From positions 1 through 33,542 of the forward strand of contig CAXCDZ010000003.1 of the NCBI GenBank assembly GCA_963981525.1: a DNA stretch of 33,542 nt, read 5' to 3'. Shown here piece by piece: positions 1 to 18,431 of this stretch (its first letter is position 1; the number at the start of each line of letters is the position of its first letter). The notes beneath the pieces are model-generated. The model did no database searches and was not told where the DNA came from. It saw nothing but the letters and a program-made list of their open reading frames with translations. The DNA is from an uncultured bacterium (lineage in GTDB: Bacteria; Patescibacteriota; Microgenomatia; UBA1400; UBA12108). The position numbers and the translations under genes are program-made.

Positions 1-13
1 GAGGCCTACTTAA

Positions 14-2295: not shown

Positions 2296-2343
2296 TTTCC
2301 CCCTCTCCTCAACCCTATATACTATGTACTATACCCTATCTCC

Positions 2344-3216: not shown

Positions 3217-3284
3217 ATAATTAGTATGACAATATTCATTGCTCTTGACAACTCTCTCTCTCTCTCTGCGAAAATCCTTATAGG

Positions 3285-3794
3285 ATGTTAAAAGAACAAA
3301 GATTAAACTCTCCCGAATCATATTCACTGTGGTATGGTGATTTTATTAATCACCTACCAAGCATAAGTAACAGAGCTAAGCTGGCTTCACACATTCAAAA
3401 CACTGAGATTCCTTATTCCAAAACTACTAATTTACGCTTTTCCGAACCACAATCAATTATCCAAATTTTACAACAAGGATTTGTTCCTTCACCTGGCGAA
3501 TATGACATTGGATCCTCTGGTAATACCACCAATCATATAATAGATACTTGGGCATATGGTGGTAAAAGTTCTCAAGAAAAAACATCAGACCAATACTACA
3601 ACAAACTATTTGGATCAAATAATTGGATTGCAGTCAAACTAGATCAAACCAACCATTCTTCAAACTCTCCCATGACAGAACCTCTACTACGTATGCCGTT
3701 TATCAAAAAGGAAATAGTACAACAACTATACGGAGATTTAGTTAATCAAAAATATTCTCGATATTCAGGTATTACAAGTAAAATCCTTCCATAA
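3285..3794 (+). CDS. hypothetical protein
   Basis: 169-aa AT-rich ORF filling the gap between dprA and the next gene. No recognisable motif; start uncertain. Confidence 0.55.
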   Translation: MLKEQRLNSPESYSLWYGDFINHLPSISNRAKLASHIQNTEIPYSKTTNLRFSEPQSIIQILQQGFVPSPGEYDIGSSGNTTNHIIDTWAYGGKSSQEKTSDQYYNKLFGSNNWIAVKLDQTNHSSNSPMTEPLLRMPFIKKEIVQQLYGDLVNQKYSRYSGITSKILP

Positions 3795-3857
3795 ACACTC
3801 AACTTGTATTACCCGCCACCATGTTTCGAAACATAGTAACAATAACCCCCTACTTGC

Positions 3858-4538
3858 TCACAACACCTCCCTCTTCATTCCATCAATCATTCCATGAACC
3901 TTGCGCAAAAAATCTGCACTCCGCCTAACTCGTATTCTAAGCACTCCATAATATTCCCCTGGGTTCTCATATACTTTCTTCCACTTCACCTTCTGATAAA
4001 AAGGTTTGCGAAACTCACCCTCATCAACATCAAGTAATTTCGCCCAATACTGCACAATCTCTTTTATTCTATATTCATGTGACTCATTCACAGTCACTCG
4101 AAAAATCAAATCATCTTTTGAATATCCAAAACACTCAACTAACCATTTCACTACCATCAACACCATCTCTGGATCAGAACTACCAAGTCCAGCTTGATTA
4201 TCTTTCTTATATCCCTCTGCCCAATACAAAGCAATTCCCACCAGCAATAACTCTCTTTTATTCATTTCTCCTACAAGCTTCTCACCTTCTAAGTTTAATG
4301 TCCTCGTCTTATCAATGCGAATTTGCTGTTGCTTAAGTACATTCTCCAATCGTTTTCCATAATATGGATCTCGTCCCTGTTTTTCAAGCTGCTTTATTTG
4401 TTCCTGAGTCAACTTCACGTCTCGACACCACAAACTCACAGATCCTGGAGAAACAGACAATTCGTGAGCAATCCACTTAATACTTTTCCCACTCTTTCTA
4501 AATATTCTCGCCTTGATCTTTTCTTTTGATTTAGCCAT
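3858..4538 (-). CDS. HTH + single LAGLIDADG-like domain protein ('LYWAEG' type)
   Basis: N-terminal HTH-like 'FRKSGKSIKWIAHELSVSPGSVSLW', then 'LVGIALYWAEGYKK...LGSSDPEMV'. Paralogous to 15412..16065. Confidence 0.7.
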   Translation of the reverse strand: MAKSKEKIKARIFRKSGKSIKWIAHELSVSPGSVSLWCRDVKLTQEQIKQLEKQGRDPYYGKRLENVLKQQQIRIDKTRTLNLEGEKLVGEMNKRELLLVGIALYWAEGYKKDNQAGLGSSDPEMVLMVVKWLVECFGYSKDDLIFRVTVNESHEYRIKEIVQYWAKLLDVDEGEFRKPFYQKVKWKKVYENPGEYYGVLRIRVRRSADFLRKVHGMIDGMKREVL

Positions 4539-4660
4539 ACACAGTTCTTAGTGTCATTATAGCAAGGTACAATTATTTTGCAATATTCCCGTTCTCAAGT
4601 TACAATACACGAGTACATTCAAAAAACCTGTCTCGTCGTAATAATCGATGAAGACGGACG

Positions 4661-4936
4661 CGCGGGATAGTGTACGGTGCACGTGAGGCTCAAAATGGGC
4701 CCCTACCCGAGTAATTAGGTAGAGAGAATTTGGCTATATCGGTGAATGCCTATTGCTAGACAATAGGTTAACCCCGAGGGAAGGCTCCCGATTTATCGAG
4801 AGAACCCGTAGAGACTACACGCCAGACTCCCCACTTTCTTCACAGAAAAGGGAGATGATATAGTCCGACACTCCAGGTAACCGGAGAATACAGATCGCAT
4901 AATCTCACAGGCTAGGTTCAACTCCTAGTCCCGCAA
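4661..4936 (+). tRNA. tRNA-Met(CAT), initiator-type, intron-containing (exons 4661-4690 and 4898-4936)
   Basis: Acceptor CGCGGGA/TCCCGCA with C1:A72 mismatch. The spliced anticodon arm reads TGAGG-CT|CAT-AA-TCTCA. T-arm CTAGG-TTCAACT-CCTAG. Confidence 0.9.
4691..4897 (+). ncRNA. group I intron (207 nt) in initiator tRNA, inserted after U33
   Basis: 5' exon ends in U and the intron ends in G. Core motifs GTAGAGACTA (R/P7) and GATATAGTCC (S/P7'); P9-like hairpin CTCCAGGTAACCGGAG. Confidence 0.9.
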
Positions 4937-4943
4937 CAAACAT

Positions 4944-4972
4944 AAAAGCCACTCGTAAGAGTGGCTTTTTTT
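4944..4972. terminator. bidirectional intrinsic terminator between convergent tRNAs
   Basis: AAAAGCCACTC-GTAA-GAGTGGCTTTTTTT, a perfect hairpin flanked by A and T tracts. Confidence 0.85.
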
Positions 4973-4980
4973 ATCTCGTG

Positions 4981-5052
4981 TAGCAGGGGAGAGAATTGAA
5001 CTCTCGACCTAAAGTTTATGATTCTTTTGCTCTACCACTGAGCTACCCTGCC
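4981..5052 (-). tRNA. tRNA-Met(CAT), probably elongator
   Basis: GGCAGGGTAGCTCAGTGGTAGAGC-A-AAAGA-AT-CAT-AA-ACTTT-AGGTC-GAGAG-TTCAATT-CTCTC-CCCTGCT-A. A31:A39 mismatch in the anticodon stem. Confidence 0.85.
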
Positions 5053-5114
5053 TTGATTATCATAGCTTTCGCAACGACAACTCGTATATTCTAACATCTA
5101 AAAAGAATATTTCC

Positions 5115-6146
5115 CTACAACACTAATAACCCAGCAAGTCCAAGCACCAAGAATAACAATCCCACCGAGATCGTCCCCATCGTAACCTCAAACACTCCTG
5201 CCTCAGGTAACGTCTCTCCCTCTGGTTGAGTTACCCTTGGAGATGGTGTTGGAGTTGTAGTTGTAGTCGAACTACTCGCCGTTGGAGTGGGGGTTGGTGT
5301 AGCAGTTGCGCTTGCACCCGGACTCGCGCTCGGTGTAGGAGTTGGTGAGCTCACCACGCTTGATGGCGTATATGACCAGATCACAACATAATCATTAAAG
5401 TCCGCGTTCGACGGGTCACCAGACCCTCCCCAGTCTCCCCAACACTGGATCGAAACTAGAGGTTCTCCCTCTGCCTCCTCTGTAGCCCAGTTAATATATG
5501 AGGTAATATCTGGATGAACTTGACTCCCATCTCCTCCACATGTGTTATCAGCTTTCGGCGGGATCCATCCATATCCTGGCTTATCATAATCTCCTCCATC
5601 AAACGCTCCAATCGTTACTTTCTCCGCTCCAGGTAATACAAATCCAGTATCCAAGTATGACATTGAGGTGCTCGATCCGTTCCCGACGATCTGCACTCCC
5701 ACTCCCCCACTCGCACTCTCCATGTCCAAAAGAACACTAGAGCTACCAGAATAATTACTAAAATAGACTCTCACCTCTCCTGCCTTTGGATAAGAGATCT
5801 CATTCCCACTCGGAGTTACTTGACTCACACTAATTGGCGCAATCGAAGGGGATGGGATCGCTACAGGTGACGGTAACGCAGCCACCGTTGGTCTAGGCGT
5901 AGTAGAGGGCTTAGGTGCGGGTGCAATCGATTGCTGGTATACCACCACTCCCAAACCAACTCCAACCACCACACAAGCCAGGACTATCATCCATAGCTTT
6001 GATCCCTTTTTCTGCTTCTTGATCTTGGGAATAGCCTTGCTCTCGGCACTCTCACCTATTGATGGAGGTGGTATTAACGGTTCATTGTTCACCATATCAG
6101 AATATCCCTTCCTATCCATCATGCCAAATCTTATCGTCGAGGTCAA
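5115..6146 (-). CDS. surface/membrane protein with N-terminal TM, Pro/Thr/Ser linkers and C-terminal LPxTG-like (LPEAG)+TM
   Basis: Hydrophobic 'LWMIVLACVVVGVGLGVVVY', PT/S-rich linkers, 'NADFNDYVV', terminal 'LPEAG...LLFLVLGLAGLLVL'. The true start may be ATG 6095. Confidence 0.8.
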   Translation of the reverse strand: MTSTIRFGMMDRKGYSDMVNNEPLIPPPSIGESAESKAIPKIKKQKKGSKLWMIVLACVVVGVGLGVVVYQQSIAPAPKPSTTPRPTVAALPSPVAIPSPSIAPISVSQVTPSGNEISYPKAGEVRVYFSNYSGSSSVLLDMESASGGVGVQIVGNGSSTSMSYLDTGFVLPGAEKVTIGAFDGGDYDKPGYGWIPPKADNTCGGDGSQVHPDITSYINWATEEAEGEPLVSIQCWGDWGGSGDPSNADFNDYVVIWSYTPSSVVSSPTPTPSASPGASATATPTPTPTASSSTTTTTPTPSPRVTQPEGETLPEAGVFEVTMGTISVGLLFLVLGLAGLLVL

Positions 6147-6413
6147 TCAGCAATATCAAGCACAATATCAAATGCTCACACTTCCCAGAAAAATACTCAT
6201 CTCCCTCTAAAAAATATTCCTAATTACTTTGATAGAATATGCTAATTATTAATAATCAAAAAGGACAATATGAAATGCTCAATATGTGGTGCAAATGCTT
6301 GTTACATGGTTGCTGTAGATAGTAGATTGAGTAGGATTTTCAAACAAGTAGTTGATAAATATGCAGCAAGATGCAAAGAATGCACCGACAAGACAGAAAA
6401 GTAAAAGTGCTAG

Positions 6414-6697
6414 CTCCCCCGGCTGGACTCGAACCAGCGACCTTGAAGTTACATGTAACCCACTTGTTACCAAATGGCATGGACTATCTCATCACCATAG
6501 CAAACACGTTAGGTGGTGGGCGCTCGAGGGTGTAATCACCTAGTCTCTGCACCTGCCTACATCTTAGATGAGGATTGGCTCAGGATTGCCCTACATATGC
6601 AGGGGTTCCCTGATTTCACCCACTTTTCACTCAAATGTTTCCATCTGAGGCTGCAAACTTTCACAGCTTCCTGCTCTACCGACTGAGCTACAGGGGA
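6414..6697 (-). tRNA. tRNA-Asn(GTT), intron-containing (exons 6697-6663 and 6451-6414)
   Basis: Spliced sequence TCCCCTGTAGCTCAGTCGGTAGAGCAGGAAGCTGT|TAACTTCAAGGTCGCTGGTTCGAGTCCAGCCGGGGGAG; U1-A72 and G73 as expected for Asn. Confidence 0.9.
6452..6662 (-). ncRNA. group I intron (211 nt, IC3/trnL-like) in tRNA-Asn between positions 35 and 36
   Basis: Minus strand carries GGGCAATCCTGAGCCAA (6575-6591), GCAGAGACTA and GAGATAGTCC. Preceded by exon U and ends in G. Confidence 0.9.
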
Positions 6698-6772
6698 ATG
6701 TATTGAATTGTTAAATCTGATACACTGGAATTATATCACGCAAATCCTCAAACCCTGAGGAGAAAGGTCTAC

Positions 6773-7045
6773 ATGAGCTACACAAACATGATGGGGTGGG
6801 GAAACAGCTGGGGATCATTTGGCACCGGCATCTCACTCTTTGTTCTCTGGAGCTTGCTCTGGAAAGGTCTCGCTCTCTGGCGCTCTGCCAAAGAAGATAA
6901 TAGATACTGGTTCATCGCTTTTCTCGTTGTCCACACCGGCGGATTACTTGAGTTAGCTTATCTCTTTTTCTTCGCCAAGGAAAAACTCAACCTCTCCACT
7001 ACCCCAAAAAAGAAACCAGCTAAGAAAAAATCAACCAAGAAATAG
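6773..7045 (+). CDS. small membrane protein, DUF5652-like
   Basis: 'LWSLLWKGLALWRSAK...WFIAFLVVHTGGLLELAYLF' pattern, Lys-rich tail, GAGGAG upstream. Confidence 0.8.
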   Translation: MSYTNMMGWGNSWGSFGTGISLFVLWSLLWKGLALWRSAKEDNRYWFIAFLVVHTGGLLELAYLFFFAKEKLNLSTTPKKKPAKKKSTKK

Positions 7046-7047
7046 AG

Positions 7048-8292
7048 TTACTCCAAATAGTCCTGAAGCATCTTACGCTTGCTAGGATGCTTGAGTTTTC
7101 TAAGTGCCTTTGCCTCAATCTGTCGAATGCGCTCGCGTGTAACCCCAAACTCTCTCCCCACCTCCTCCAGTGTCATCGGTTTTGCTCCAAGCAAACCAAA
7201 CCGCATCTCCAACACCTTACCCTCTCGGTCCGATAGTGCAGCCAGCACCTCTTCGATATTCTCACGCAAAAGTCGCTGACTTGTTAGTTCATACGGAGTA
7301 GCTTGTTTAGTATCCTCAATAAAATCCCCTAGATAAGAATCCTTGTCGTCTCCAATCGGCGTCTCAAGAGAGGTTGTTTTCTGACTAATTTTCAGGATCT
7401 CTCGCACCTTCTCAGGTGTAATCTCCATCACCTCTCCTACTTCCTCAGGTGTAGGATCTCTCCCTAACTGTTGCATCAACTTACGGCTAGTTCTAATGAG
7501 CTTATTAATCGTCTCGACCATATGCACCGGGATCCTAATCGTTCTCGCTTGGTCAGCTATAGCACGAGTAATTGCCTGCCTAATCCACCACGTCGCATAA
7601 GTCGAAAACTTAAACCCCTTTTTCCAGTCATACTTCTCCACCGCTCGAATGAGTCCTTTGTTGCCTTCTTGGATTAAGTCTAGAAACGATAATCCTCTCC
7701 CAATATATTTTTTCGCAATCGAAACTACTAGGCGAAGGTTAGAGCTCGTTAACTTCTCCTTCGCCCTCAAACTACCCGCATCATTCTTCTGCGCTAGCTC
7801 AATCTCCTGGTCTCGAGTAAGTAAGGGAATACGCCCAATCTCTCGCAGATACATTCGCACTGGATCACTAATTGACCTAGAATCAATCGTCGTCAACATC
7901 TCTAGCTCCTTCTCCAGTTCCGAGGCTTTCTTCTCATCATCATCCGTCTCTGCCACAGTCTCAAACACATCAATCTCTTTGTATATTAGCTCCTCATACA
8001 AATCATCCAGCTGATCAATCCAGTTCTCTGCGTCAGGAAACAAACTCAAGATCTCATCTTGCGTCACGTACCCCCGACTCATTCCCTTGAGCACTAACTC
8101 ACGAATCTTCTTCTTGCGTACCCCACCCACACCTTCATCAGTATATGTAATCTCAGAACTATCTATTTTTTTATTTCTTTTTTTCGCTACTTTCTTAGCA
8201 GGTTTTTTCTCCACCTTTTTACCAACCTTTTTTGCAGGTTTCTTAACTACTTTTTTTGACTTAGTTGTTGTTTTCTTTTTCTTTGTTGGCAT
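7048..8292 (-). CDS. rpoD: primary RNA polymerase sigma factor RpoD/SigA
   Basis: '[11 protein letters not shown]', '[12 protein letters not shown]', '[31 protein letters not shown]', '[17 protein letters not shown]'. Confidence 0.98.
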
Positions 8293-8337
8293 ACAAAAAT
8301 CCCCTTATTTGCGTAGTATACTCGATTTTACTGTTTT

Positions 8338-10098
8338 TTATAACTCCGAAAGCATTTTTGACGTCTCACTAAACTCACTCTGAGCCTTCGCTAAGCCAGG
8401 ATTATTCCCACTTTTCTCCAGTTCATCTATTTTGCCGGAGAGTTGCTTTAGCCTCTCTTTTAGATACATCTCCTCAACTTCTTTTCTGACTTTTGACCAT
8501 TCTTTCTCTGAATTGGCAATTTCCGAGAGATCACTCAGATATGCTTTATCAAACACCGCAATCATTTCTGGTTTTAGCTTCTTCCCAAAACTCTCTATGC
8601 TCCACTCACCCTTATATCTTGCTAGCTCCGCCATAATCATTCGGATCACAGGCACTTCTAACCACAAAACATCAATCTCACTCAACTTCTCCTTAATCTG
8701 AACATAAAACTGCAAACTCAATGATAGCAAATATTCCTCCACTCGCTCTCTCCGACTCACCACCTCACCCTTCTCGATCTTCTTGACCACATGTTTTAGA
8801 TTAGAGAGTTTCTTTTTTTTATTCACTCTCTCTATCTCCTCAAAAATCGACTCTTCTGGCACTGACAGCTTCTTGGCAAGTAGCTGCGCATAATGCGCTT
8901 TCACCACTGCATTGCTAATACTCGCGAGCACCGGCACTACTTCTTGACTAATCAAACTCGCCCCAGTTCCACTCGACGGATCATTTCGCTCGCACGCTGT
9001 GTTAATCAGATAATCCCAAAACAGTGTCGCTCCCTTGACCATCTTTCGCCAAGCCTCTGGATTCTCACTCGCCACATCCCCCGGATCCTTACCTCCCGTA
9101 ATCTGGATCACTCGCACGGATAGCTCCAATGGATCTGCCACAAGCACCGCTCGCTTGACTGCCTCTTGTCCTGCCTTATCAGCGTCAAGAGCATACACCA
9201 CATTCTTGGTGTAACGAGCAATCAGTCTCCCCATCTCCTCGGTAAACGCACTCCCCTTGATTGCAACTACATTCTTCACCCCTGCCTGATAACTCGGAAG
9301 AACATCAAGCTCTCCCTCCACCAAAATAATCTGATCTCCCTTCCTAATCTGCTCTCTATTCTCATATAGTCCGTACAGCATCTTACTCTTATGATAGATC
9401 AAGGTCTCCGGCGAGTTAATATACTTCGCTTCTTTTTTATCATTTGAGAGTGTCCTCCCAGAAAACCCCACCACACTCCCTTTGTGGTCACGCAGTGGGA
9501 ACATCACACGCCCTCGAAATCGATCATAGTAATGTCCACTATCACTCCTAATCACAAGCCCCACGGCAGATAATTCCTCCATCGTGTAACCCTTTTTCTG
9601 GTTTAGGAATGTACTCACTCCCTGCCACTGCTTAGGCGCATAACCGAGTCCGTATAACTTAATTGCTCCTGCATTAATCTTTCTCTCTTTTAGATACCCT
9701 CTCGCTTCCTCTCCTGCCTTGTGAGTATTGAGTAGATATTGATAAAACTCACTAGCCATACTCATTATTTCCAAGAGTTTCTTCTTTTGCATATCCTGTG
9801 CAGTTGGTCGATAACTCTCAAGCTCCACCCCCACTCTCTGAGCAAGTGATTCCAGTGCCTCCAAAAAACTCATCCCATCATATTTCTGCAAAAATGAAAT
9901 CGCATCGCCCCCTTCGCCACACCCAAAACATTTGTAACTCTGTCTCTCCGGTGAAACAATAAAACTCGGTGATTTTTCTGAATGAAACGGACAGAGTCCC
10001 TTATAATGCCTCCCGGCTTTCTTAAGAGTCACACTCTCCCCCACGAGCTCCACTATCTCTACCTTTTGCTTGATCTCATCTACTTGATCTCTTGCCAT
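8338..10098 (-). CDS. dnaG: DNA primase
   Basis: Zn finger 'CPFHSEKSPSF...CFGC', 'DRFRGRVMFP', 'KYINSPET', TOPRIM 'VEGELD...DADKAG'; upstream of rpoD. Confidence 0.97.
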   Translation of the reverse strand: MARDQVDEIKQKVEIVELVGESVTLKKAGRHYKGLCPFHSEKSPSFIVSPERQSYKCFGCGEGGDAISFLQKYDGMSFLEALESLAQRVGVELESYRPTAQDMQKKKLLEIMSMASEFYQYLLNTHKAGEEARGYLKERKINAGAIKLYGLGYAPKQWQGVSTFLNQKKGYTMEELSAVGLVIRSDSGHYYDRFRGRVMFPLRDHKGSVVGFSGRTLSNDKKEAKYINSPETLIYHKSKMLYGLYENREQIRKGDQIILVEGELDVLPSYQAGVKNVVAIKGSAFTEEMGRLIARYTKNVVYALDADKAGQEAVKRAVLVADPLELSVRVIQITGGKDPGDVASENPEAWRKMVKGATLFWDYLINTACERNDPSSGTGASLISQEVVPVLASISNAVVKAHYAQLLAKKLSVPEESIFEEIERVNKKKKLSNLKHVVKKIEKGEVVSRRERVEEYLLSLSLQFYVQIKEKLSEIDVLWLEVPVIRMIMAELARYKGEWSIESFGKKLKPEMIAVFDKAYLSDLSEIANSEKEWSKVRKEVEEMYLKERLKQLSGKIDELEKSGNNPGLAKAQSEFSETSKMLSEL

Positions 10099-10168
10099 TG
10101 TTCTCCTATTTTATCAAATAAACACCCTATTCACCTCACCGACACGCTGATACGCTGACTCACTGATC

Positions 10169-10792
10169 TCAGTATCTCTCCCCAGTCTTCTTCATCGCAA
10201 AAGCTCGAAACTGATCCAGTTTTTCTTTTTCTTTATTAAAAGTAAAAATCAACTTATTCATCCAGTTATGCAGATCCTCTGCCATCTGGATGTTTACGAT
10301 CTTAAAGTTCTTGATATTCCCTGCACTAGACCTGGCAACAAATGTTCCTAGCTTAAATATAGCCTGGAGATATCCCTTACTATACGCCGCCGAATCCACT
10401 ACCTTATCCAGAGTCAGTGACATCTGATATCTCGTCCACGGTGTAGTGTGGATAAACTTGGTAAGCCTACGAGTAGTAATAATAAACAAAGTCTTACGGT
10501 AGACCTGCCACCCCCACCACAATCCCCCAAACATCACCACTAACCCAAGCACCATAATCACTCCCACAATCCACCCAGTCGCAAAATTAAGCATCTCACC
10601 AGTTTGCGCAACTAGCACCGCTCCTATCACGATCGCCACTGCCGTCGCAAGAAAAAATCCCGTTAGTCGTGCCGCAAGCATCACCGGACTCTCGCGAGTT
10701 ATATAGAGAATTCTCTCATCCTCTGCTTGTCCAGGAAACTTAACTCCAGTATATGGAGCTTGATAATCTGTAGCTTCAAAAATATTTTGCAT
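10169..10792 (-). CDS. membrane protein with bacterial PH-like domain
   Basis: Two TM segments followed by 'FIITTRRL...LDKVVD...IFKLGTF'. Confidence 0.65.
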   Translation of the reverse strand: MQNIFEATDYQAPYTGVKFPGQAEDERILYITRESPVMLAARLTGFFLATAVAIVIGAVLVAQTGEMLNFATGWIVGVIMVLGLVVMFGGLWWGWQVYRKTLFIITTRRLTKFIHTTPWTRYQMSLTLDKVVDSAAYSKGYLQAIFKLGTFVARSSAGNIKNFKIVNIQMAEDLHNWMNKLIFTFNKEKEKLDQFRAFAMKKTGERY

Positions 10793-10814
10793 AACTCAAA
10801 AACCTTCTTATTTG

Positions 10815-10897
10815 CGGAGGAGGCGGGACTCGAACCCGCGAGAGCTTGCGCTCGCATCCTTTCCAAGAATGTGCCGTAGCCACTGGGCCACTCCTCC
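10815..10897 (-). tRNA. tRNA-Ser(GGA)
   Basis: GGAGGAG/CTCCTCC-G acceptor, CATTC-TT-GGA-AA-GGATG anticodon arm, long variable arm, GGTTCGAGTCC. Confidence 0.95.
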
Positions 10898-10905
10898 ACT
10901 TTCTC

Positions 10906-11931
10906 CTATTTTAACTTACCCAGCCTATTTCTGCCAGATGAATACTCAACAAGTCTATTGAGATGTTTTATATTCCTAGGTTCAAATACTTCAAAAAATC
11001 TTTTTGCTGTCCTAGTTCCATATAGAAAAGAGTTGTAACCAGAGCCATGCACCCCAAACCCATTCTCTTGCAATCCCAACTTATAACTACTCAACAATGG
11101 AACAGATGCCGAAGTAAATGACAAGCCAAAATGGATATATTGATATCCATTCACAGTATGTCTATGAGTAAATGTTCCTCCATCAGTATCATAAAGTCCC
11201 CTCATGCAAGCTCTAAGATAATCAGAATTATTCTTGATCCACTCTGGAATATCAACCTGATGTCTGATTTTGTTTCCTGTTTTCAGTCCCAAACCTTCCA
11301 ATATTTCTGTGAATTTCACTCCAGAGAAAATCACTCTAATAATATTCTGTTTTGGATACGAACATACAGATGGTTTTGCCCCAAACAATTTATCCGCTAG
11401 CTCACATACATGCTTTGCATACTCGATATCATCCATCATGTGCAAGCTAATTTGACATTGAGTTTTAGTTAAACAACCATCGCCCAATACTATCCCCACA
11501 AATTCAGCTAATTTCGTAGAGTGCTTTGGTATTACAAATTTACTTGCAACCCTGCATCCTAATTTTCGATAATAATCAGGATTCTCTCTTCTTTTCTTCT
11601 GAGACACCCTTCCTCCCTTAGCTCGATCAGCTTGAGTTAGTGTCACACCATACATCTCTATTCTCTTCTTGGCTCCCTTACTACCATTCACTCTCCCACT
11701 CCACCACTCTTCTCTCTCTTCGATTACTGTAGGAATTGACAATCCAGATAGATCACTTAATAATTCCATTTTATTTTTGCTGGGCAATATCTTCCCCGCA
11801 ATCCAATCTCGATAATTACGACCTGACATACCAATTAATTTTCCCACCTCCTCCGCGCTCAACCCCAACTGATCACGTACGCCTCTAAGAAACTCAGCCT
11901 GTTCACTCTTATCCATCACCAACCTAGTCAT
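10906..11931 (-). CDS. free-standing HTH + two-motif LAGLIDADG endonuclease-like protein
   Basis: N-terminal XRE-like HTH 'LRGVRDQLGLSAEEVGKLIGMSGRNYRDW'; motifs 'LAEFVGIVLGDG' and 'ACMRGLYDTDG'; no intein splice blocks. Start is 11958, 11931 or 11916. Confidence 0.85.
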   Translation of the reverse strand: MTRLVMDKSEQAEFLRGVRDQLGLSAEEVGKLIGMSGRNYRDWIAGKILPSKNKMELLSDLSGLSIPTVIEEREEWWSGRVNGSKGAKKRIEMYGVTLTQADRAKGGRVSQKKRRENPDYYRKLGCRVASKFVIPKHSTKLAEFVGIVLGDGCLTKTQCQISLHMMDDIEYAKHVCELADKLFGAKPSVCSYPKQNIIRVIFSGVKFTEILEGLGLKTGNKIRHQVDIPEWIKNNSDYLRACMRGLYDTDGGTFTHRHTVNGYQYIHFGLSFTSASVPLLSSYKLGLQENGFGVHGSGYNSFLYGTRTAKRFFEVFEPRNIKHLNRLVEYSSGRNRLGKLK

Positions 11932-11981
11932 ACTTAATACTAACAATACCCGAATCATTAGTCAAGTGATATACTCAATTT

Positions 11982-12446
11982 ATGCCTACCTGGAAACTAC
12001 CTCCCAAGATCAAGATCTACGAAGCACTCGGCGCTATCGCCGACGAGCGGATCGAGCTAGATGGCAACACGTCCCGTGTCTACTCCAGTAGCAGAGGCAA
12101 ATTCTACACCGTCTCATATGATCCAGATAACAACTCCATTATGGCCAATGACAACGGCTCATACTGGCAGGGATATCTCGGCTACCCTTCTATCGCTTAC
12201 CTCCTTGCAACCAAGATTATTTCTTACTCCCCAAAAATCGCTCACTATCTAATCGATATCAAATGGAAAGATCTTAATACTCAGTTAAAAAATGACTGGG
12301 ATAAAACAATCAATCATCTTCACAAGACTCTCACCCCTCAACAACTAGATCTTCTGACCACAGAAATCAATCGAATTCACGAGTATCTTAAATCTCACCC
12401 CATAAATAAACTCGGCAAACGAACAAAGCCTCCTTCTGGCTACTAA
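11982..12446 (+). CDS. hypothetical protein
   Basis: 154-aa ORF with host-like strand bias; extended -10 (TGATATACT) 6 nt before the ATG. Confidence 0.8.
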   Translation: MPTWKLPPKIKIYEALGAIADERIELDGNTSRVYSSSRGKFYTVSYDPDNNSIMANDNGSYWQGYLGYPSIAYLLATKIISYSPKIAHYLIDIKWKDLNTQLKNDWDKTINHLHKTLTPQQLDLLTTEINRIHEYLKSHPINKLGKRTKPPSGY

Positions 12447-12451
12447 AAATG

Positions 12452-12533
12452 CGGAGAGTACAGGAGTCGAACCTGTTTGAGATTGCTCCCACTAGTTTTC
12501 GAAACTAGCGCATTACCGTCCTGCCCACTCTCC
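12452..12533 (-). tRNA. tRNA-Ser(CGA)
   Basis: GGAGAGT/ACTCTCC-G acceptor, CTAGT-TT-CGA-AA-ACTAG, long variable arm, ACAGG-TTCGACT-CCTGT. Confidence 0.9.
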
Positions 12534-12574
12534 AGACGTAGATATTGTACCAAAAGCTCTGCTATACTAAAACT

Positions 12575-13087
12575 ATGCCTACCACAGCACCTCAACTCAA
12601 CCAAACACAAAAATCCCTCATTACCTGGGCCGCCCCCGCTCGCCCTTTCAAGGAACGCACTCGCGAGTTCTACACTACTATCCTCAGCATCGCCTTTCTC
12701 CTCACCATCATTCTCTTTTTGCTCAAGGAGTTTCTCCTCATCGGTGTCATCATGGCTTTCGCCTTCCTCAGCTATGTCCTCTCCACCCACAAACCAGATG
12801 ATGTCACACACGAGCTCACCTCAGAAGGAATAGTATCCGACGGCAAGCTCTACTCATGGGAAACATTCACCAACTACTGGATCGAGAAGAAGTTCGACCA
12901 AGAAGTCATAATGGTCAAAACCAAAACCACAATCCCTGGCCTAATCCTCATGGTTATCGACCAAAAAAAGAAAAAGCAAATCACTCAGATTCTTGAAAAA
13001 TACCTCCCACAAGAAAAGCCAGCCGACAACTTCGTTAGTCGTGCTAGTTCCTGGCTCTCAGACAAAGTTCCCCTCGAAAACACCTAA
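12575..13087 (+). CDS. two-TM membrane protein (DUF5673/YcxB-like)
   Basis: 'WAAPARPFKER' followed by 2 TM and 'LTSEGIVSDGKLYSWETF'; ATG 12575 follows TGCTATACT by 6 nt. Confidence 0.75.
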   Translation: MPTTAPQLNQTQKSLITWAAPARPFKERTREFYTTILSIAFLLTIILFLLKEFLLIGVIMAFAFLSYVLSTHKPDDVTHELTSEGIVSDGKLYSWETFTNYWIEKKFDQEVIMVKTKTTIPGLILMVIDQKKKKQITQILEKYLPQEKPADNFVSRASSWLSDKVPLENT

Positions 13088-13117
13088 TTCTCAACTTGGG
13101 TTATAATATTACCTCCT

Positions 13118-13189
13118 GCTCCCGTCGTTCAACGGATAGGACACCAGTTTGCGGAACTGGCAATGCAAGTTCGATTCTTGCCGGGAGCA
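13118..13189 (+). tRNA. tRNA-Arg(GCG)
   Basis: GCTCCCG/CGGGAGC-A acceptor, CCAGT-TT-GCG-GA-ACTGG, GCAAG-TTCGATT-CTTGC; TATAAT at 13102-13107. Confidence 0.93.
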
Positions 13190-13197
13190 CCCTTCAA

Positions 13198-13707
13198 CTA
13201 CAGTAGTTTACTTGCTGCCACCAAAACCTCCCGCTCACTCTCAAAGCCCAGTAGCTTCATTGCCTCCTCATAACTCACCCACTTCCTCTCACTCATCTCC
13301 CAGCCATGATCTGGCAGCTCTTCCTCTAGCTCCATCAGGTAAAACACCACCTTCTTGTGTACCTCTACTCCCTCTCCCCCATCTTCCTGATACTTCTTCA
13401 CTCTCCGCTCGCTTACCTGGCCATTTGCACTCTCTCCCACCTGCTTACCCAGCTCTGCCACATATGAGTACTCTATCGTCTTTACTGGCACTAGATTAAC
13501 TACCTTCGCCATCACCCCCACCTCCTCCTCTACCTCACGCACAGCAGTCTCTACTAACCCCTCTCCTTTCTCTACCAACCCCTTCGGGAGCACCCATTTG
13601 CTGTACCCAGAGTGCTTTCCGATCAAGAATTGCCAACTGACACGCTGACCTGCCGACACGCTGACACGCCGACACACTACTCCTCCAGCCGACAACTCTT
13701 CTTTCAT
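13198..13707 (-). CDS. NUDIX hydrolase
   Basis: Nudix box 'LPKGLVEKGEGLVETAVREVEEEVG' and 'SAGGVV'. ATG 13707 lies 6 nt after TATAAT. Confidence 0.92.
   Translation of the reverse strand: MKEELSAGGVVCRRVSVSAGQRVSWQFLIGKHSGYSKWVLPKGLVEKGEGLVETAVREVEEEVGVMAKVVNLVPVKTIEYSYVAELGKQVGESANGQVSERRVKKYQEDGGEGVEVHKKVVFYLMELEEELPDHGWEMSERKWVSYEEAMKLLGFESEREVLVAASKLL
13637..13676. repeat. 8-nt tandem repeat (CYGACACG x5) inside the NUDIX gene
   Basis: ctgacacg ctgacctg ccgacacg ctgacacg ccgacaca; related arrays at 10139-10167, 20294-20325 and 26083-26130. Confidence 0.8.
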
Positions 13708-13745
13708 ATCCATATTATATCCTATGTAGTACAATAGTCTCGTCT

Positions 13746-13829
13746 GGTGAGGTGCTCCGAATGGTTAAGGAACCAGTCTTGAAAACTGGCGCCCGCAAGG
13801 GCTTGCAGGTTCGAGTCCTGTCCTCACCG
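13746..13829 (+). tRNA. tRNA-Ser(TGA)
   Basis: GGTGAGG/CCTCACC-G acceptor, CCAGT-CT-TGA-AA-ACTGG, variable arm GCCC-GCAA-GGGC, GGTTCGAGTCC. Confidence 0.93.
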
Positions 13830-14177
13830 CCCAAGTATTACATCCAACCACTTCTCCCAATTTGTTTTTTTAGCTGTCTTTTCTTCCTGAGAACTGATCA
13901 CTGAGAACTGATCACTATCCTCTGGTACGATTACTACCACCTCTCCTTCCTTCGCCAGGTTCAGCTCATCTCTAGCTATCTTCTCTAGATAATCCTCTCC
14001 CTGAACATACTCCAGCTTCTCGAGTAACTCTGCTCGCTGATTACCTAGCTCTTGCTTCTCCTCAAGCAAACTCTCCACCCTTCCCCTGGAGTGCTTTGAT
14101 TTCTCAATTCCCTTGACCAGAGAAACGATGAGAACTACCTGAAATCCAATTATTCCCCACTTTAGATATTTATTCAT
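13824..14177 (-). CDS. septum formation initiator, FtsB/DivIC family
   Basis: N-terminal TM, coiled coil, 'YLEKIARDELNLAKEGEVVVIV', and C-terminal 'NWEKW'. Confidence 0.88.
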   Translation of the reverse strand: MNKYLKWGIIGFQVVLIVSLVKGIEKSKHSRGRVESLLEEKQELGNQRAELLEKLEYVQGEDYLEKIARDELNLAKEGEVVVIVPEDSDQFSVISSQEEKTAKKTNWEKWLDVILGR

Positions 14178-14238
14178 AATTTGCTATTTATATATTAACG
14201 GTTGCATTACATCCCATAATATTGTATTATTCTCCCAT

Positions 14239-15096
14239 ATGGAATCTCATAAGAACCAGTTTATCAAATATCTAGAGAAAAATGGTCGCGCAACTGCCAC
14301 CATCCTCGCCTACTCAAAGGATCTAGATCAGCTCATAGAATTTCTCGCAACTCTGGGAGTAACTGATGTTACCACCATCACCACCGAGAATCTCGAGGGC
14401 TTCAAGAACGACCTTAGCAGCAAACAATATACCCTCAAGAGTATCTCCCGCAAACTCAACTCCGTCAAAAGTCTCTTTAAGTATCTCCTCAGCGCAAATA
14501 TCGTCACCTCCTCCCCTGCCAACGGAGTCGCCCACCCCAAATACGAAATCACTCCTCCCCACGTTCTCTCTCCTCTCGAGTATCGCGCTCTACGTGACGC
14601 ATGCCGTGACGACGTTAGAATGTATGCCATTGTCGAGATTCTTCTCCAAACTGGCCTTCGTATTGGTGAGCTAGCCGGCATCCAACTCCAAGACATCACT
14701 CTGGAACAAAGCACCCTCAAGATCAGAGCCTTCGAGTCCCACGACTCTCGTCGCGTTCCTCTGAACAAAACCGCCAAGGAAGCCATCGAGATGTACGTCA
14801 AAGAGAGACCAAAAACCAAAAACACCACCCTTTTTATCACCAAAACCGGCAATCCCTTCTTGATTCGTAACATCCGCACCGCCATTAACCGCTACTTCCG
14901 CATCGCAGGGATCGAAGGAGCAAAGGTCAATGATCTCCGCCACACCTTCATCGTCGAACAGCTCAAGGCAGGAGTACCCCTGGTTGATCTTAGTAAAATG
15001 ATCGGCCACAAACGCCTCAGTACTACCGAGAAATACCTCCAGTTTCTTAACGGCAACAAATCAGAACCAAAGAAAATCAAAATCGCCGAACTTTAA
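14239..15096 (+). CDS. tyrosine recombinase, XerC/XerD-like
   Basis: SAM-like N-domain, 'TGLRIGEL', 'NDLRHTF', 'IGHKRLSTTEKY'. Confidence 0.92.
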   Translation: MESHKNQFIKYLEKNGRATATILAYSKDLDQLIEFLATLGVTDVTTITTENLEGFKNDLSSKQYTLKSISRKLNSVKSLFKYLLSANIVTSSPANGVAHPKYEITPPHVLSPLEYRALRDACRDDVRMYAIVEILLQTGLRIGELAGIQLQDITLEQSTLKIRAFESHDSRRVPLNKTAKEAIEMYVKERPKTKNTTLFITKTGNPFLIRNIRTAINRYFRIAGIEGAKVNDLRHTFIVEQLKAGVPLVDLSKMIGHKRLSTTEKYLQFLNGNKSEPKKIKIAEL

Positions 15097-15108
15097 TCCT
15101 CCGAAGGT

Positions 15109-15288
15109 CTAGATCTTCACCTTCTTCGTCTCCTTAATCAGCTTCGCATTCTCCACTAGCACTACTTGCTTATTCCTATCCACTACCATATACCTCTCTC
15201 CCGCTTGCCCTGAGAGCGCATTCATCCGATCCCAGAACATCTCATCCCCCGCTTGCATTATTGTTTTTTTGGTTATCTTTATTTTCAT
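15109..15288 (-). CDS. small hypothetical protein (59 aa)
   Basis: MKIKITKKTIMQAGDEMFWDRM... starting at ATG 15288, downstream of tRNA-Ile; purine-rich coding strand like its neighbours. Confidence 0.6.
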   Translation of the reverse strand: MKIKITKKTIMQAGDEMFWDRMNALSGQAGERYMVVDRNKQVVLVENAKLIKETKKVKI

Positions 15289-15311
15289 ATATAGATACTG
15301 TCTATTATGGG

Positions 15312-15383
15312 TGGGCTGGGGAGGACTTGAACCCCCAACCAACGTTGTATAAGAACGCCGCTCTACCATTGAGCTACCAGCCC
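15312..15383 (-). tRNA. tRNA-Ile(TAT)
   Basis: GGGCTGG/CCAGCCC-A acceptor, GCGTT-CT-TAT-AC-AACGT anticodon arm, GGGGG-TTCAAGT-CCTCC. Confidence 0.9.
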
Positions 15384-15411
15384 ACGTACCAGATCATATT
15401 CTACCACTTAA

Positions 15412-16065
15412 TCAATACATTCGAGACAACACTTCCATCCCTGCAAAAACTGGTCTGGCATACTTCACTCCTCCAGATATTACATTGCATGTACCATGTC
15501 CCCAACTCATTCTTGTCAACTTAGAATAATAACTATCTTTTATATACGGATTCACAAAATGACTCTTTTCAAGTCCGGTGACATTCATCCAATATCTCAC
15601 CTCATCATCTATTATCATGTCTTTGTATAAGTGTAGTCTTATTCGTATTTTTTCTTTCGGAAATCCCAAAGAAGACATCAACCATTTTAAATAAAACTTA
15701 ATCATTCTTGGATCTGTATTAGCGAACGTCAGCTCAGAATATTTAGTTTTTCCTCCTTCTCCCCAGTACAAAGCAAGACCTACCAGATACAGCTCTCGTT
15801 TGCTCAAAGATCCAATTTCTGCGTTTTGAATATTTAGTGCATCACTAAATGCCTTTTCCCTCTTTTTCTTCATCGTCTCTCGAAATTTCTCCGCTACAAC
15901 TTCATTGTGTTGCAGCTTATATATCTGTTCTTTTGTTAGTGGATAGTCCCTCAACCACAAACTCAACGAGCTCTTACTCACTTCTATTTTTTTCTTTATC
16001 GCCGAATAACTCCACCCCAATCTCCGTAATCGTAGTGCCTCCTCATGTTCTTTTCTTTTTGCCAC
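15412..16065 (-). CDS. HTH + single LAGLIDADG-like domain protein ('LYWGEG' type)
   Basis: 'ALRLRRLGWSYSAIKKKIEVSKSSLSLW' and 'LVGLALYWGEGGKT...FANTDPRMIKFY'; paralog of 3858..4538. Confidence 0.7.
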   Translation of the reverse strand: MAKRKEHEEALRLRRLGWSYSAIKKKIEVSKSSLSLWLRDYPLTKEQIYKLQHNEVVAEKFRETMKKKREKAFSDALNIQNAEIGSLSKRELYLVGLALYWGEGGKTKYSELTFANTDPRMIKFYLKWLMSSLGFPKEKIRIRLHLYKDMIIDDEVRYWMNVTGLEKSHFVNPYIKDSYYSKLTRMSWGHGTCNVISGGVKYARPVFAGMEVLSRMY

Positions 16066-16103
16066 ACCTCTATTTACCCAAATCTAACCCAAAATGTCAA
16101 GTG

Positions 16104-18431
16104 TTATAACCTCGCCCTCTTCCCGATCTCTACCTCCAGAATATTCTTATCCTTCCCGTACTTCAAACGTGACAACTTCTTAATCATCTCCGCGAGTTTA
16201 GGATTAGCTAGCTTACGCTCTGCATCGATATCACGTGTCAGGTCCATCGAGAACGGAGGCATCGGCTCATTATCAACAATTGTTTTTACGAATGTATGAT
16301 ATCGCTCCACGTTCGTGAGGTCTGACTCACTAAACGTTGGCGAGAACTCATGCTGGAGAAAATTAGCATCCTGCACACCTACTCGGAATGAGGCTAGCGT
16401 TCCCACATTCCCAAACACAGCATTCTTTACCTCCTCGTCAATCTGACCAATAAACTGGTTAGCCACAATCAGATTCAAGTGATATTTACGAGCCTCACTT
16501 AAGATGGTTGCAAAATCAGGGGTGGCAAAATTCTGGAACTCGTCAACATAGAGGTTAAAATCACGTCGTTCGGCCTCCGGAATATCTTGCCTACTCATTG
16601 CCGCAATCAAGATTTTAGGGATCAAGATTAGTCCCAAGAATGCCGAGTTCTCCTCCCCAATTCTCCCCTTTGCGAGATTAATTAAGAGGATCTTCCCATC
16701 ATCCATTACCTGCCGAAAATCAAATGCCGACTCAGACTGCCCAATAATATTCCTCATCATCTTGTCAGTAATAAATCGACCAAACTTACTAACAATATAA
16801 TCCAACACCTCTGATTTATGAAAGTCACTGGTCTGCGCGATCTGATCCGTCCAATACCGCTTAACCATCGGATCCTGGATCTTGGGCAAGAGTTCCTGCA
16901 CGAATTTGGCGTCTGTTAACACCCTCACTACCTCGATAAAAGTCGCCCCCGGCTCACTCATCACAGTTAACATTGCGTTACGTATAGCATGCTCAAACCT
17001 AGGACCAATAATACCTGTCTTGTGTGGATCGTACAGTTTGTACATCAGGTTAATAATCGAGCTCGAGACAAAGTGTTTCTGCTCCTCAGTGTGTGCCTCG
17101 ATCATGTTTAGTCCCATCGGGCGCTCAGTATCAAACGGATCAAAATAGATTACATCCTCAGCTCGCTCTGGCGGAATATACTCGAGTATCTTCTCCACCG
17201 TATCATGCGGATCAATAAAACAAACCCCTTTACCAGCCCGGATGTCCTGCAGGATCATATCCATCATAAACTCAGATTTACCCACACCCGTCTTTCCGAT
17301 GATATACATATGCCTTGCCCTATCAGCATCAGACAGATAGATGTCACGTGAGAGCCCACGATACACACTCTTCCCGAGAAACAATCCCTCGTGCGGGATC
17401 TTAGATGGTGCTGGCGCTGACTTGGAGTTGAGCCAGTTGATATGAGGTGTCTCGACTTGTTTATTAGGAAAGTGAAAAATCGTTGCCAGCTCTTCTGCGT
17501 TAAGTACTGACTTTCCATTAAACATTGCCTGATATCGATAGATAAAATCCGTCATAAATAAACGCTTGAGCCAGATTTTTTGCTTCGTCAACTTATTATA
17601 AGGACCCGAGAACTGTGCCATCGTTCCCGAGAACTGTGCCATCAGAGTTTTGGCTTCCTTTTTTGTTGGTGCATTCACCACTAACCTGATCGAAACCTCA
17701 AATCCCGCCTTTCCAGTTGATCTCTCGATCGCCTCCAGAGATCTGGGGTCTACAGAATGTGTAGCGCTCTCTGGATTACTCTCATCCTTTTTGGAACTGC
17801 TAATAAACCCTTGCCCTGATGAGGACCACTTACCTCCAGCTGGCGAGACCACGATCTGGAGCATCCCACCCTCTCCATCGCGCATCTTTGCCATAAATGA
17901 AGTGATCGACGAGAGTGGATCAGTCGGTAAATCACGAAATGATTGGAGCGGATAAAATCCTGCATTTTTCTTAACAAGTGATTTGTACTCTACTTTCCCC
18001 TCTTCCGTAAATATCGTTGGCTCCTCGACCGTCTTAATCTGCGCACCTGGATATGCCCCGTGAATCTGCTTCTCAACTAGATCCATCAACTCCTTTGGAG
18101 CCGACACATAAAATCTAATATCTTCCTTACTCCCCACTATCTCAAAGCTAATCGCATGCTCTGATTGCAAGAAAGAATACCACTCATCATTTTTGACAGA
18201 ATACAAAGAAGCAAACATCTGCTCTGCCGCGTCTATCTTGATCTCATTGTCCCTGGGCAACTTAATCTCTAGAGTCACAAAAGAGAGCGAATACTCCTCA
18301 CGTCCTCGATTGCGAAACCATAATACAAACGCATAGCCCAACGAAAATAGTCCTGCCATCCCTGCCGCTGCAAACACCAACATATAAGCAATATTGGTCA
18401 CTAGCGTCGAGAACTGATCTAATCCATTCAT
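16104..18431 (-). CDS. VirB4/TraG(TrwB)/HerA-like P-loop ATPase with N-terminal TM
   Basis: 'RHMYIIGKTGVGKS', 'FIDPH', 'LYVDEFQNF', 'SEARKY', 'ANQFIGQ'. Confidence 0.88.
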   Translation of the reverse strand: MNGLDQFSTLVTNIAYMLVFAAAGMAGLFSLGYAFVLWFRNRGREEYSLSFVTLEIKLPRDNEIKIDAAEQMFASLYSVKNDEWYSFLQSEHAISFEIVGSKEDIRFYVSAPKELMDLVEKQIHGAYPGAQIKTVEEPTIFTEEGKVEYKSLVKKNAGFYPLQSFRDLPTDPLSSITSFMAKMRDGEGGMLQIVVSPAGGKWSSSGQGFISSSKKDESNPESATHSVDPRSLEAIERSTGKAGFEVSIRLVVNAPTKKEAKTLMAQFSGTMAQFSGPYNKLTKQKIWLKRLFMTDFIYRYQAMFNGKSVLNAEELATIFHFPNKQVETPHINWLNSKSAPAPSKIPHEGLFLGKSVYRGLSRDIYLSDADRARHMYIIGKTGVGKSEFMMDMILQDIRAGKGVCFIDPHDTVEKILEYIPPERAEDVIYFDPFDTERPMGLNMIEAHTEEQKHFVSSSIINLMYKLYDPHKTGIIGPRFEHAIRNAMLTVMSEPGATFIEVVRVLTDAKFVQELLPKIQDPMVKRYWTDQIAQTSDFHKSEVLDYIVSKFGRFITDKMMRNIIGQSESAFDFRQVMDDGKILLINLAKGRIGEENSAFLGLILIPKILIAAMSRQDIPEAERRDFNLYVDEFQNFATPDFATILSEARKYHLNLIVANQFIGQIDEEVKNAVFGNVGTLASFRVGVQDANFLQHEFSPTFSESDLTNVERYHTFVKTIVDNEPMPPFSMDLTRDIDAERKLANPKLAEMIKKLSRLKYGKDKNILEVEIGKRARL

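Follow-up and report, generated by a model that had tools for sequence, protein, structure and literature searches.

Why should three AT-rich genes of a bacterial chromosome each stand beside the 5' end of a tRNA gene? The question arises in the stretch of DNA analysed here (the window), 33,542 nucleotides (nt) of contig CAXCDZ010000003.1 (C3) from assembly GCA_963981525.1 of an uncultured member of the Patescibacteria, in which the genes P0001 (3858..4538), P0002 (10906..11958) and P0003 (15412..16065) are all encoded on the minus strand; their open reading frames (ORFs) and translations were confirmed at these coordinates. Our results suggest, with a probability of roughly two in three, that P0001-P0003 are free-standing homing endonuclease genes that occupy tRNA 5' flanks, with P0001 working together with an intron, cleavage being predicted from sequence comparison and structure models.

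The source genome (G000; other G-numbers denote compared genomes and L-numbers compared loci) comprises 0.9 Mb in 103 contigs and is 97% complete. Comparison within its GTDB family covered 24 genomes and comparison within the phylum a 201-genome sample, while 746 ORFs of at least 150 amino acids (aa) formed the background set of the genome itself. Relatives recovered with a protein search came from Microgenomates and other Patescibacteria, and all counts given below cover related, non-independent genomes. A sequence-only reading of the window had described the three genes as AT-rich and as lying outside introns and inteins, and both descriptions hold. The GC contents of P0001, P0002 and P0003 are 0.388, 0.386 and 0.376, at or below the 5th percentile of the background set (0.388; median 0.476), and all three are whole genes amid host genes, with the two Rfam group I introns of the window (4681..4887 and 6460..6673) clear of their ORFs.

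Protein families and predicted folds

P0002 is, by its sequence and its predicted structure, a two-motif LAGLIDADG enzyme with an Xre-type helix-turn-helix (HTH) domain, and thus a putative nuclease. The frame is open from 11958, and the likely start, 11931 (MTRLV...), which the sequence-only reading had chosen, matches the starts of the homologues. The protein scores above the Pfam thresholds for HTH_31 and HTH_3. Its motifs, LAEFVGIVLGDG and RGLYDTDGG (within MRGLYDTDGG), each end in an acidic residue and a glycine, and in 30 sequences of the family the residues L150, A151, E152, G155, G159, D160 and G161 and the residues R253, G254, L255, D257, T258, D259 and G260 are invariant, including both motif aspartates, D160 and D259. 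In the structure model (predicted local distance difference test, pLDDT, 90.8) the alpha-beta-beta-alpha-beta-beta-alpha fold is present twice. A Foldseek search with this model gave I-Tsp061I as top match (E 6.5e-10, template modelling score 0.79 on the target) and 138 chains at E<=0.001, and all matches listed are LAGLIDADG enzymes, maturases or intein endonucleases. The family profile also matches the TliVMA intein endonuclease by sequence (2.7e-6). For PF14528, which has a cut-off of 22.5 bits, P0002 itself reaches 17.9 bits, and many of its homologues carry a precomputed match to this family.

P0001 (226 aa) and P0003 (217 aa) are paralogues, as had been supposed, with 31% identity over 190 aa (E 6e-27) and a shared signature, LYWxEGxK...DPxM, which reads LYWAEGYK...SDPEM in P0001. 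The family that they define, referred to here as LYWxEG, is large, unnamed and undescribed by Pfam: its cluster representatives number 6483 at a threshold of E<=0.001 and 3571 at one of E<=1e-10, and NCBIfam and PHROGs gave nothing informative for P0001 or P0003. Six representatives (P0280, P0304, P0313, P0316, P0334 and P0350) are 428-576 aa long with two to four matched stretches; these may represent tandem copies, fusions, or gene calls extended across a tRNA into another copy. The sequence-only reading had treated the three genes as one family; at the profile level they are two separate families that share only the HTH.

An N-terminal HTH had been noted in all three proteins. In P0002 it passes the Pfam thresholds, and in P0001 and P0003, where the Pfam matches fall below threshold, it is recovered through relatives (HTH_23 matched in 22 of 31) and in the model. 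The P0001 model (pLDDT 89.2) consists of a three-helix HTH, a long linker helix and a C-terminal domain (residues 91-226). On structural comparison with VIA-align, which itself remarks that Z 5-8 is a range common for unrelated folds, residues 1-42 match resolvase and transposase HTHs (Z 5-6); the eight best rows for residues 91-226 are all LAGLIDADG domains at Z 6.3-8.1 (among them 7qsu, 8.1; WhiA, 7.3; I-DmoI, 7.2, with 21% identity; E-DreI, 7.0), and the best matches remain LAGLIDADG down to Z 4.9, with the homodimers I-Vdi141I at 6.5, I-CeuI at 5.5 and I-MsoI at 4.9. The motif helix reads GIALYWAEG in P0001 and GLALYWGEG in P0003. Among 193 unique LYWxEG ORFs, all 190 sequences aligned there carry E or D at position 108, all 190 carry G109, and 182 of 189 carry K111. 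A homodimer of P0001 residues 88-226 was predicted with a score of 0.78, the best of three controls reaching 0.01; the mark used is reached by 20 of 30 proteins solved as one-chain pairs, against 1 of 23 solved as single chains. At least 95% of contacts are common to the runs, the partner pLDDT is at least 84, and the predicted interface is helix 95-108 packed on itself. The pass may only reflect likeness, because LAGLIDADG homodimers have already been solved. Taken together, the kept acidic residue and the predicted dimer through the motif helix favour an active enzyme.

P0001 thus resembles the homodimers I-CreI, I-CeuI, I-MsoI and I-Vdi141I in having one LAGLIDADG-type helix that ends in an acidic residue and a glycine, through which it is predicted to dimerize. 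It departs from them in its N-terminal HTH and long linker helix, in the lack of a sequence-level match, in a short first hairpin and in an extra helix (residues 152-169) between strands, whose order in the model also departs from the LAGLIDADG canon. Several results count against the assignment of P0001 and P0003 to LAGLIDADG, which draws on fold and motif with mid-range Z of 5-8, and with it against the homing interpretation. Foldseek of the P0001 model against the Protein Data Bank (PDB) returned nothing at E<=0.001, with unrelated alpha/beta folds in the top rows. Pfam found HTH domains only, and no LAGLIDADG family, in 31 LYWxEG members; phmmer of P0001 and hmmsearch with the LYWxEG profile against PDB sequences gave weak HTH matches only; and hhalign aligned the LYWxEG and P0002 families over the HTH only (probability 9.5%), not over the LAGLIDADG domains. 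The first beta hairpin, which reads DNA in known LAGLIDADG enzymes, is very short in the model (residues 109-120). Because of the modest Z scores, the missing Foldseek match and the missing profile alignment, we name the domain LAGLIDADG-like and not a proven member. The LAGLIDADG call made from the sequence is firm for P0002, by Foldseek, and for the LYWxEG pair stands on fold and motif, profile searches having failed to bear it out.

The structural matches of P0001 also raise the possibility that these are domesticated WhiA-like DNA-binding proteins, a LAGLIDADG scaffold joined to an HTH, that regulate the adjacent tRNA promoter or themselves and play no part in mobility. WhiA chains are among the best matches (8dy9_I, Z 7.3; 3hyi, Z 6.3), an HTH is present in every member, and the short DNA-reading hairpin would suit such a protein. 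WhiA, however, has lost its catalytic acidic residues, whereas the acidic residue is kept throughout the aligned LYWxEG members, and the AT-richness of the genes also speaks against this view. Given, in addition, the distribution described below, in which copies number 0-5 per genome, some are decayed, two unrelated families alternate at one site and presence varies between sister genomes whose flanks are 98% identical, we regard a purely regulatory role as unlikely.

Position and distribution at tRNA genes

P0002 ends 8 nt before the co-oriented tRNA-Ser(GGA) (10814..10897, minus strand), as the sequence-only reading had it, and P0003 ends before the co-oriented tRNA-Ile(TAT) (15308..15384, minus strand) by 28 nt according to Rfam, the distance given earlier, or 27 nt according to ARAGORN; both tRNAs are found by both programs. 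P0001 is divergent from an initiator-like tRNA(CAU) (4661..4937, plus strand; exons 4661..4690 and 4898..4937) across a 122-nt spacer (4539..4660). This arrangement, too, was confirmed with the intron mode of ARAGORN, which finds 4661..4937 and mislabels it Leu(caa), the plain mode missing it; the tRNA is taken as initiator-like because its exons read C1...A72 with the anticodon CAU.

The source genome carries four LYWxEG genes and one P0002-type gene in total. Outside the window, the LYWxEG copy on contig C34 extends 24 nt into tRNA-Val(GAC) and that on C36 reads entirely through tRNA-Tyr(GTA). Just 13 of the 746 background ORFs have their end in the interval -100..+60 nt around a co-oriented tRNA start, and among these 13 are four of the five genes that the two families have in this genome. 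Measured over homologues, the enrichment is strong. Within the GTDB family, where 20 of the 24 genomes have one to five LYWxEG copies each, a co-oriented tRNA starts -88..+30 nt from the stop in 41 of 48 copies; of the remaining seven, five are P0001-type genes and two lie at contig ends. The same rule holds in 66 of 69 copies from 43 further genomes of the phylum sample (about -90..+35 nt) and, on pooling, in 126 of 193 unique ORFs. In the P0002 family it holds in 12 of 14 copies, the other two being at contig ends, and the partners are tRNA-Ser(GGA), tRNA-Ser(ACU) and tRNA-Gln(CTG).

The usual arrangement is that the 3' end of the ORF touches or overlaps the 5' end of the tRNA. Among LYWxEG offsets -10 is the most frequent, with 37 cases, 34 of which have as their stop codon the TAG formed by tRNA positions 8-10 (U8-A9-G10); in most cases the distance between the end of the conserved domain and tRNA position 1 is 5-39 nt. 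Where the partner is tRNA-Met(CAT), its promoter-like -35 and extended -10 boxes are preserved within the last codons of the ORF, and a promoter-like site also lies in the last 30 nt of P0002 (10937..10908), ending 10 nt before tRNA-Ser(GGA). Such elements within or beside the ORF 3' end would also suit regulators of the tRNA promoter. By consensus scan only, the spacer upstream of P0001 has promoter-like sites in both directions (minus strand, 4583..4556, TTGCAA-16-TATAAT with TG; plus strand, 4618..4645), and the scan around P0003 and tRNA-Ile(TAT) gave no site.

The partner tRNA follows the phylogeny of the endonuclease-like genes. On a LYWxEG tree of 159 rows (34 of the 193 ORFs, with fewer than 170 aligned residues, were dropped, including the partners of tRNA-Tyr and most of those of tRNA-Thr(GGT)) the partner label changes 18 times, the minimum being 15 and the mean after shuffling 63.7, and the partners of Ile(TAT), Val(GAC), Ala(GGC), Gly(TCC), Arg(GCG) and Ser(ACU) tRNAs each form a single group, P0003 belonging to that of Ile(TAT). 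This bears on the possibility that the tRNA 5' flank is a passive safe harbour, a tolerated and well-transcribed place that gathers small selfish genes, in which case the endonucleases, if active, would target something else. That nine of the other 741 ORFs of at least 150 aa in the source genome also end beside a tRNA agrees with such a view, as do the toxin-antitoxin-like ORFs found in two of the same flanks (see below). It would not lead us to expect that clades track tRNA identity across the phylum, that the same orientation and offsets recur, that nearly all phylum-sample copies are at a tRNA rather than in other intergenic DNA, or that tRNA alleles are replaced while flanks stay 98% identical, and we consider it quite unlikely.

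The homing interpretation is also suggested by the patchiness of the genes. LYWxEG copies number 0-5 per genome and are present in 44 of the 201 phylum genomes, and empty-site alleles, which were looked for, are found at the syntenic tRNA-Met(CAT), tRNA-Ile(TAT) and tRNA-Ser(GGA) sites. Nine genomes, the source genome among them, have a host membrane-protein gene whose end lies 35-79 nt before tRNA-Met(CAT), and the gap holds an LYWxEG member of about 230 aa in G004, G007, G008 and G015; G019 also has one just upstream of the tRNA. In the window this site (tRNA-Met(CAT), 4980..5052, minus strand, tail to tail with the initiator tRNA) is empty, the membrane-protein gene (5115..6146) ending 62 nt upstream. 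The tRNA-Ile(TAT) site was located through a conserved neighbour, a gene for a 775-aa ATPase (16104..18431 in the window, minus strand), since BLAST with the tRNA reached only 7 of the 24 genomes. The tRNA follows the ATPase gene directly, at 31-33 nt, in G001, G010 and G023, and an endonuclease gene, P0003 in the window, is inserted between the two in G000, G004, G005, G008 and G018. At tRNA-Ser(GGA) a P0002-type gene is present in G000, G001 and G005 and absent in six other genomes with enough sequence to judge. The slot upstream of tRNA-Ser(ACU) holds a P0002-type gene in eight genomes and an LYWxEG gene in four, within two or three genera, and neither family in the source genome. Searches for endonuclease remnants in empty sites upstream of tRNA-Ser(ACU) in G000 and upstream of tRNA-Ile(TAT) in G006, G007, G011 and G014 gave chance-level matches only (E 0.04 or worse). 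Contigs from four DNA runs aligned over 10700..16200 showed no joints but are too fragmentary to weigh either way, and no RNA run was listed among the 20 runs that contain this DNA.

Some copies differ from a plain intact gene. The LYWxEG copy L194 (G082:C1:769456-770116), upstream of tRNA-Gln(TTG), carries several stop codons and is therefore likely a decaying gene. The P0002-type genes upstream of tRNA-Ser(ACU) (L135-L139 and L146-L148) have one TGA or TAA inside the match, with open frames of 326-445 aa, and there the match probably extends past the stop. The tRNA at this site is itself of note. ARAGORN assigns the anticodon ACU to it (G000:C4:22507-22591, and also at L135-L139 and L147-L148), its anticodon loop in G000 is TTACTAA, and it is kept across the taxonomic family in tandem with tRNA-Ser(GCU); tRNAs with A34 other than tRNA-Arg are unusual in bacteria.

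tRNA alleles, the initiator-tRNA intron and a homing model

At several of these sites the tRNA allele beside the gene has been replaced, in a pattern of co-conversion that is clearest at tRNA-Met(CAT). Here the host flanks of G015, G016 and G017 are 98% identical and only G015 has the endonuclease gene. The tRNA-Met of G015 matches that of G007 and G011, two genomes of another genus, at 100% identity, and that of G016 and G017 at only 72-73%. Divergence of 27% in a tRNA is not possible beside a neighbour that remains 98% identical, so the G015 allele must have been replaced, which also speaks against a purely regulatory role. A similar pattern is seen at two other sites. At tRNA-Ile(TAT) one allele (91-100% identity) is common to eight gene-less genomes of four genera, and all five gene-bearing alleles are 58-69% identical to it (58-62% for the allele in the window); at tRNA-Ser(ACU) the identity of alleles is 94-100% between genera, against 53-70% inside one genus.

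The P0001 clade differs from the others in that its members stand head to head with the initiator tRNA, breaking the rule of co-orientation, and in its link with an intron. In the window the initiator-like tRNA is interrupted between U33 and C34 by a group I intron of 207 nt without an ORF (Rfam RF00028 at 4681..4887, 56.4 bits). We located the initiator tRNA in 19 of the 24 family genomes, of which seven are intron-bearing and 12 intronless. A P0001-type gene stands beside it, 85-122 nt upstream, in five of the seven and in none of the 12 (one-sided exact test, 21/11628 = 0.002, computed over related genomes), G011 and G014 keeping the intron without the gene. The exons of intron-bearing and intronless alleles are identical within a genus, which fits the expectation if the intron, rather than sequence change, protects the resident copy. 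In a wider set of 80 loci (L006-L085), with a tally that also draws on a few other loci, an intron-bearing tRNA lies just upstream of the P0001-type gene in 66 cases, is not seen in 11 and falls where there is too little upstream DNA in six. At about 19 of the 80 loci tRNA-Met(CAT) lies within 72 nt of the match end. The anticodon arm is a near-palindrome that would, we infer, suit a homodimer.

Some LAGLIDADG proteins act as maturases, and the genes could accordingly be thought to encode trans-acting maturases that aid the splicing of ORF-less tRNA group I introns. The restriction of P0001-type genes to intron-bearing initiator tRNAs in the family, the same neighbour at the 66 wider loci and the presence of the bI3 maturase (2ab5) and I-AniI (1p8k) among the fold matches of P0002 all agree with this. 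Yet among the other LYWxEG clades just nine of 126 partner tRNAs have an intron, P0002 and P0003 adjoin intronless tRNAs, and the second intron-bearing tRNA of the window, tRNA-Asn(GTT) (6413..6697, minus strand, split by a group I intron without an ORF, Rfam 6460..6673), has no endonuclease gene adjoining it. The catalytic residue is, moreover, retained, and two of the seven intron-bearing initiator tRNAs do without the gene. We therefore consider a maturase role very unlikely. The sequence-only reading had offered domesticated regulators or maturases as the alternative to selfish elements, and neither fits a patchy distribution of this kind well, while its first suggestion, of selfish genes that home beside tRNA genes without interrupting them, gains support from the adjacency, the filled and empty sites, the clade specificity, the replaced alleles and the kept acidic residue.

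We propose that homing would proceed as follows. P0002 would act as a monomeric two-domain LAGLIDADG enzyme, and P0001 and P0003 as single-domain LAGLIDADG-like enzymes, probably homodimers, each aimed by its N-terminal HTH. The cut would fall in the common allele of the enzyme's own tRNA gene, or at the junction of tRNA and flank, in genomes that lack the gene. Repair of the break from a gene-bearing copy would then copy in the gene, about 0.65-1 kb, often together with the neighbouring tRNA allele, which differs in sequence and is presumably uncut. Owing to this closeness the tRNA promoter would come to lie within the 3' end of the ORF, which often stops at U8-A9-G10 of the tRNA. The P0001 clade would probably cut intronless initiator-tRNA genes at or near the intron site, and the intron would both protect the resident copy and travel along, as in collaborative homing. 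Overall, the model is one of intronless homing aimed at tRNA genes, with collaborative homing in the P0001 clade; the route of transfer between cells is likewise a presumed one.

Further points weigh against this model. It draws on comparative and computed data, and cleavage, binding and transfer are predicted; the family and phylum counts overstate the support for it, because the genomes are related and so not independent. Members of the P0001 clade keep 55-73% identity at one locus across orders, a degree of conservation that also suits a host function, including that of a WhiA-like regulator. At tRNA-Ser(ACU) the identities of the endonucleases cross the allele groups (56% between G004 and G017, 66% between G017 and G001), and because protein identities do not follow allele groups, gene and tRNA are not always one travelling block. 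No allele pattern was found at tRNA-Ser(GGA), the partner of P0002, and three gene-less genomes have non-standard tRNA-Ile alleles, where the gene could have been lost after invasion. Small, AT-rich, toxin-antitoxin-like ORF pairs, which we take to be BrnT/BrnA-like and MazF/PemK-like, occur in the same flanks, in G000 upstream of tRNA-Ser(ACU) (G000:C4:21884-22506) and in G011 upstream of the initiator tRNA (L228:1765-2395); because other selfish-looking genes occupy them, these tRNA flanks may simply tolerate insertions. The regulator, maturase and safe-harbour explanations thus each account for part of the data, and we rank them below homing.

Neighbouring features, known systems and meaning

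The neighbourhood of P0003 contains two further genes of interest. The 775-aa ATPase has weak TraG/TrwB/HerA-type domains and is conserved, with a match in all 24 family genomes and 82-85% identity among full-length orthologues in 18 other genomes of the family; a second paralogue has about 36% identity. A tyrosine recombinase gene (14239..15096) might have belonged to an integrative element at tRNA-Ile, a reading that we rejected because elsewhere the endonuclease gene comes and goes alone between the ATPase gene and the tRNA. The tRNA-Ile with the anticodon UAU is used by the source genome, and the same tRNA is found across the taxonomic family. A third group I intron of this genome (G000:C13:2988-3223, 61.7 bits) lies where ARAGORN gives no tRNA. 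An AdoCbl riboswitch at 30974-31120 of the window (minus strand) scores above the Rfam threshold (52.2 against 50 bits), in a very small genome. Positions 1-20000 of the window have a strongly negative GC skew along their whole length (about -0.1 to -0.6), with almost every long ORF on the minus strand; an earlier study, to judge by its title, deals with disparity of strand composition in a Microgenomates genome (PMC7143001).

Most free-standing homing endonucleases known so far come from phages and organelles. An initiator-tRNA intron has a counterpart in Synechocystis, where an enzyme with a PD-(D/E)XK fold is reportedly encoded in a group I intron in the anticodon loop of tRNA-fMet. P0001, too, is associated with an anticodon-loop group I intron of the initiator tRNA; unlike that enzyme it lies outside the intron and is LAGLIDADG-like. 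Closer in position is SegB of phage T4, according to its abstract a free-standing GIY-YIG homing endonuclease in a tRNA gene cluster that promotes the inheritance of its own gene and the tRNA region (PMC2330249). The genes described here are similarly free-standing among tRNA genes and outside introns and inteins. They differ from SegB, one GIY-YIG gene in one phage cluster, in being LAGLIDADG genes of a bacterial chromosome with clades that are each tied to one tRNA species, and in the overlap of ORF and tRNA, a feature not seen in the SegB abstract (PMC2330249). Intronless and collaborative homing have both been described for phages (PMC3984707), and F-CphI is outlined there and in a second paper as working with a psbA intron (PMC3984707, PMC6083498). 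As in the F-CphI/psbA system so outlined, the P0001-type gene adjoins a gene with an ORF-less intron and is found only with that intron, the exons being unchanged; here, in contrast to a phage protein gene, the host is a bacterial tRNA gene and the enzyme is of another family, with a target that is predicted.

Within the Candidate Phyla Radiation (CPR), LAGLIDADG homing endonucleases have been reported in rRNA-gene insertions, together with the proposal that they spread by target-specific homing (PMC11270868). They share phylum and enzyme superfamily with the genes described here and differ in sitting inside the rRNA insertions; the terms tRNA, free-standing and helix-turn-helix are absent from the main text of that paper. 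The study of a Microgenomates genome mentioned above gives a 23S intron enzyme only (PMC7143001). Our search of open-access papers and preprints found no account of free-standing LAGLIDADG-type genes that have radiated in chromosomes in association with tRNA 5' ends.

It is also conceivable, if doubtful, that the fusion of ORF and tRNA is itself functional, the gene having taken over the promoter region of the tRNA and borrowing U8-A9-G10 as its stop codon. If so, an essential single-copy tRNA would be put at risk whenever the gene is deleted, which would amount to addiction. RNase P, in cutting at the tRNA 5' end, would then strip the stop codon from the message and direct the nuclease to non-stop rescue, which would tie the dosage of the nuclease to tRNA processing. 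Together with the replacement of alleles, such a fusion would make these genes a main driver of tRNA gene turnover in ultra-small bacteria.

Whatever the role of the fusion, two families have spread into many bacterial lineages, each linked with the 5' edge of a single tRNA species. Should the enzymes cut tRNA genes, as the homing model supposes, this would explain the sharp tRNA differences between very close relatives in the phylum. It would also provide a natural bacterial case of an intron and an endonuclease cooperating on a tRNA gene, and a set of compact nucleases with ready-made, distinct targets.

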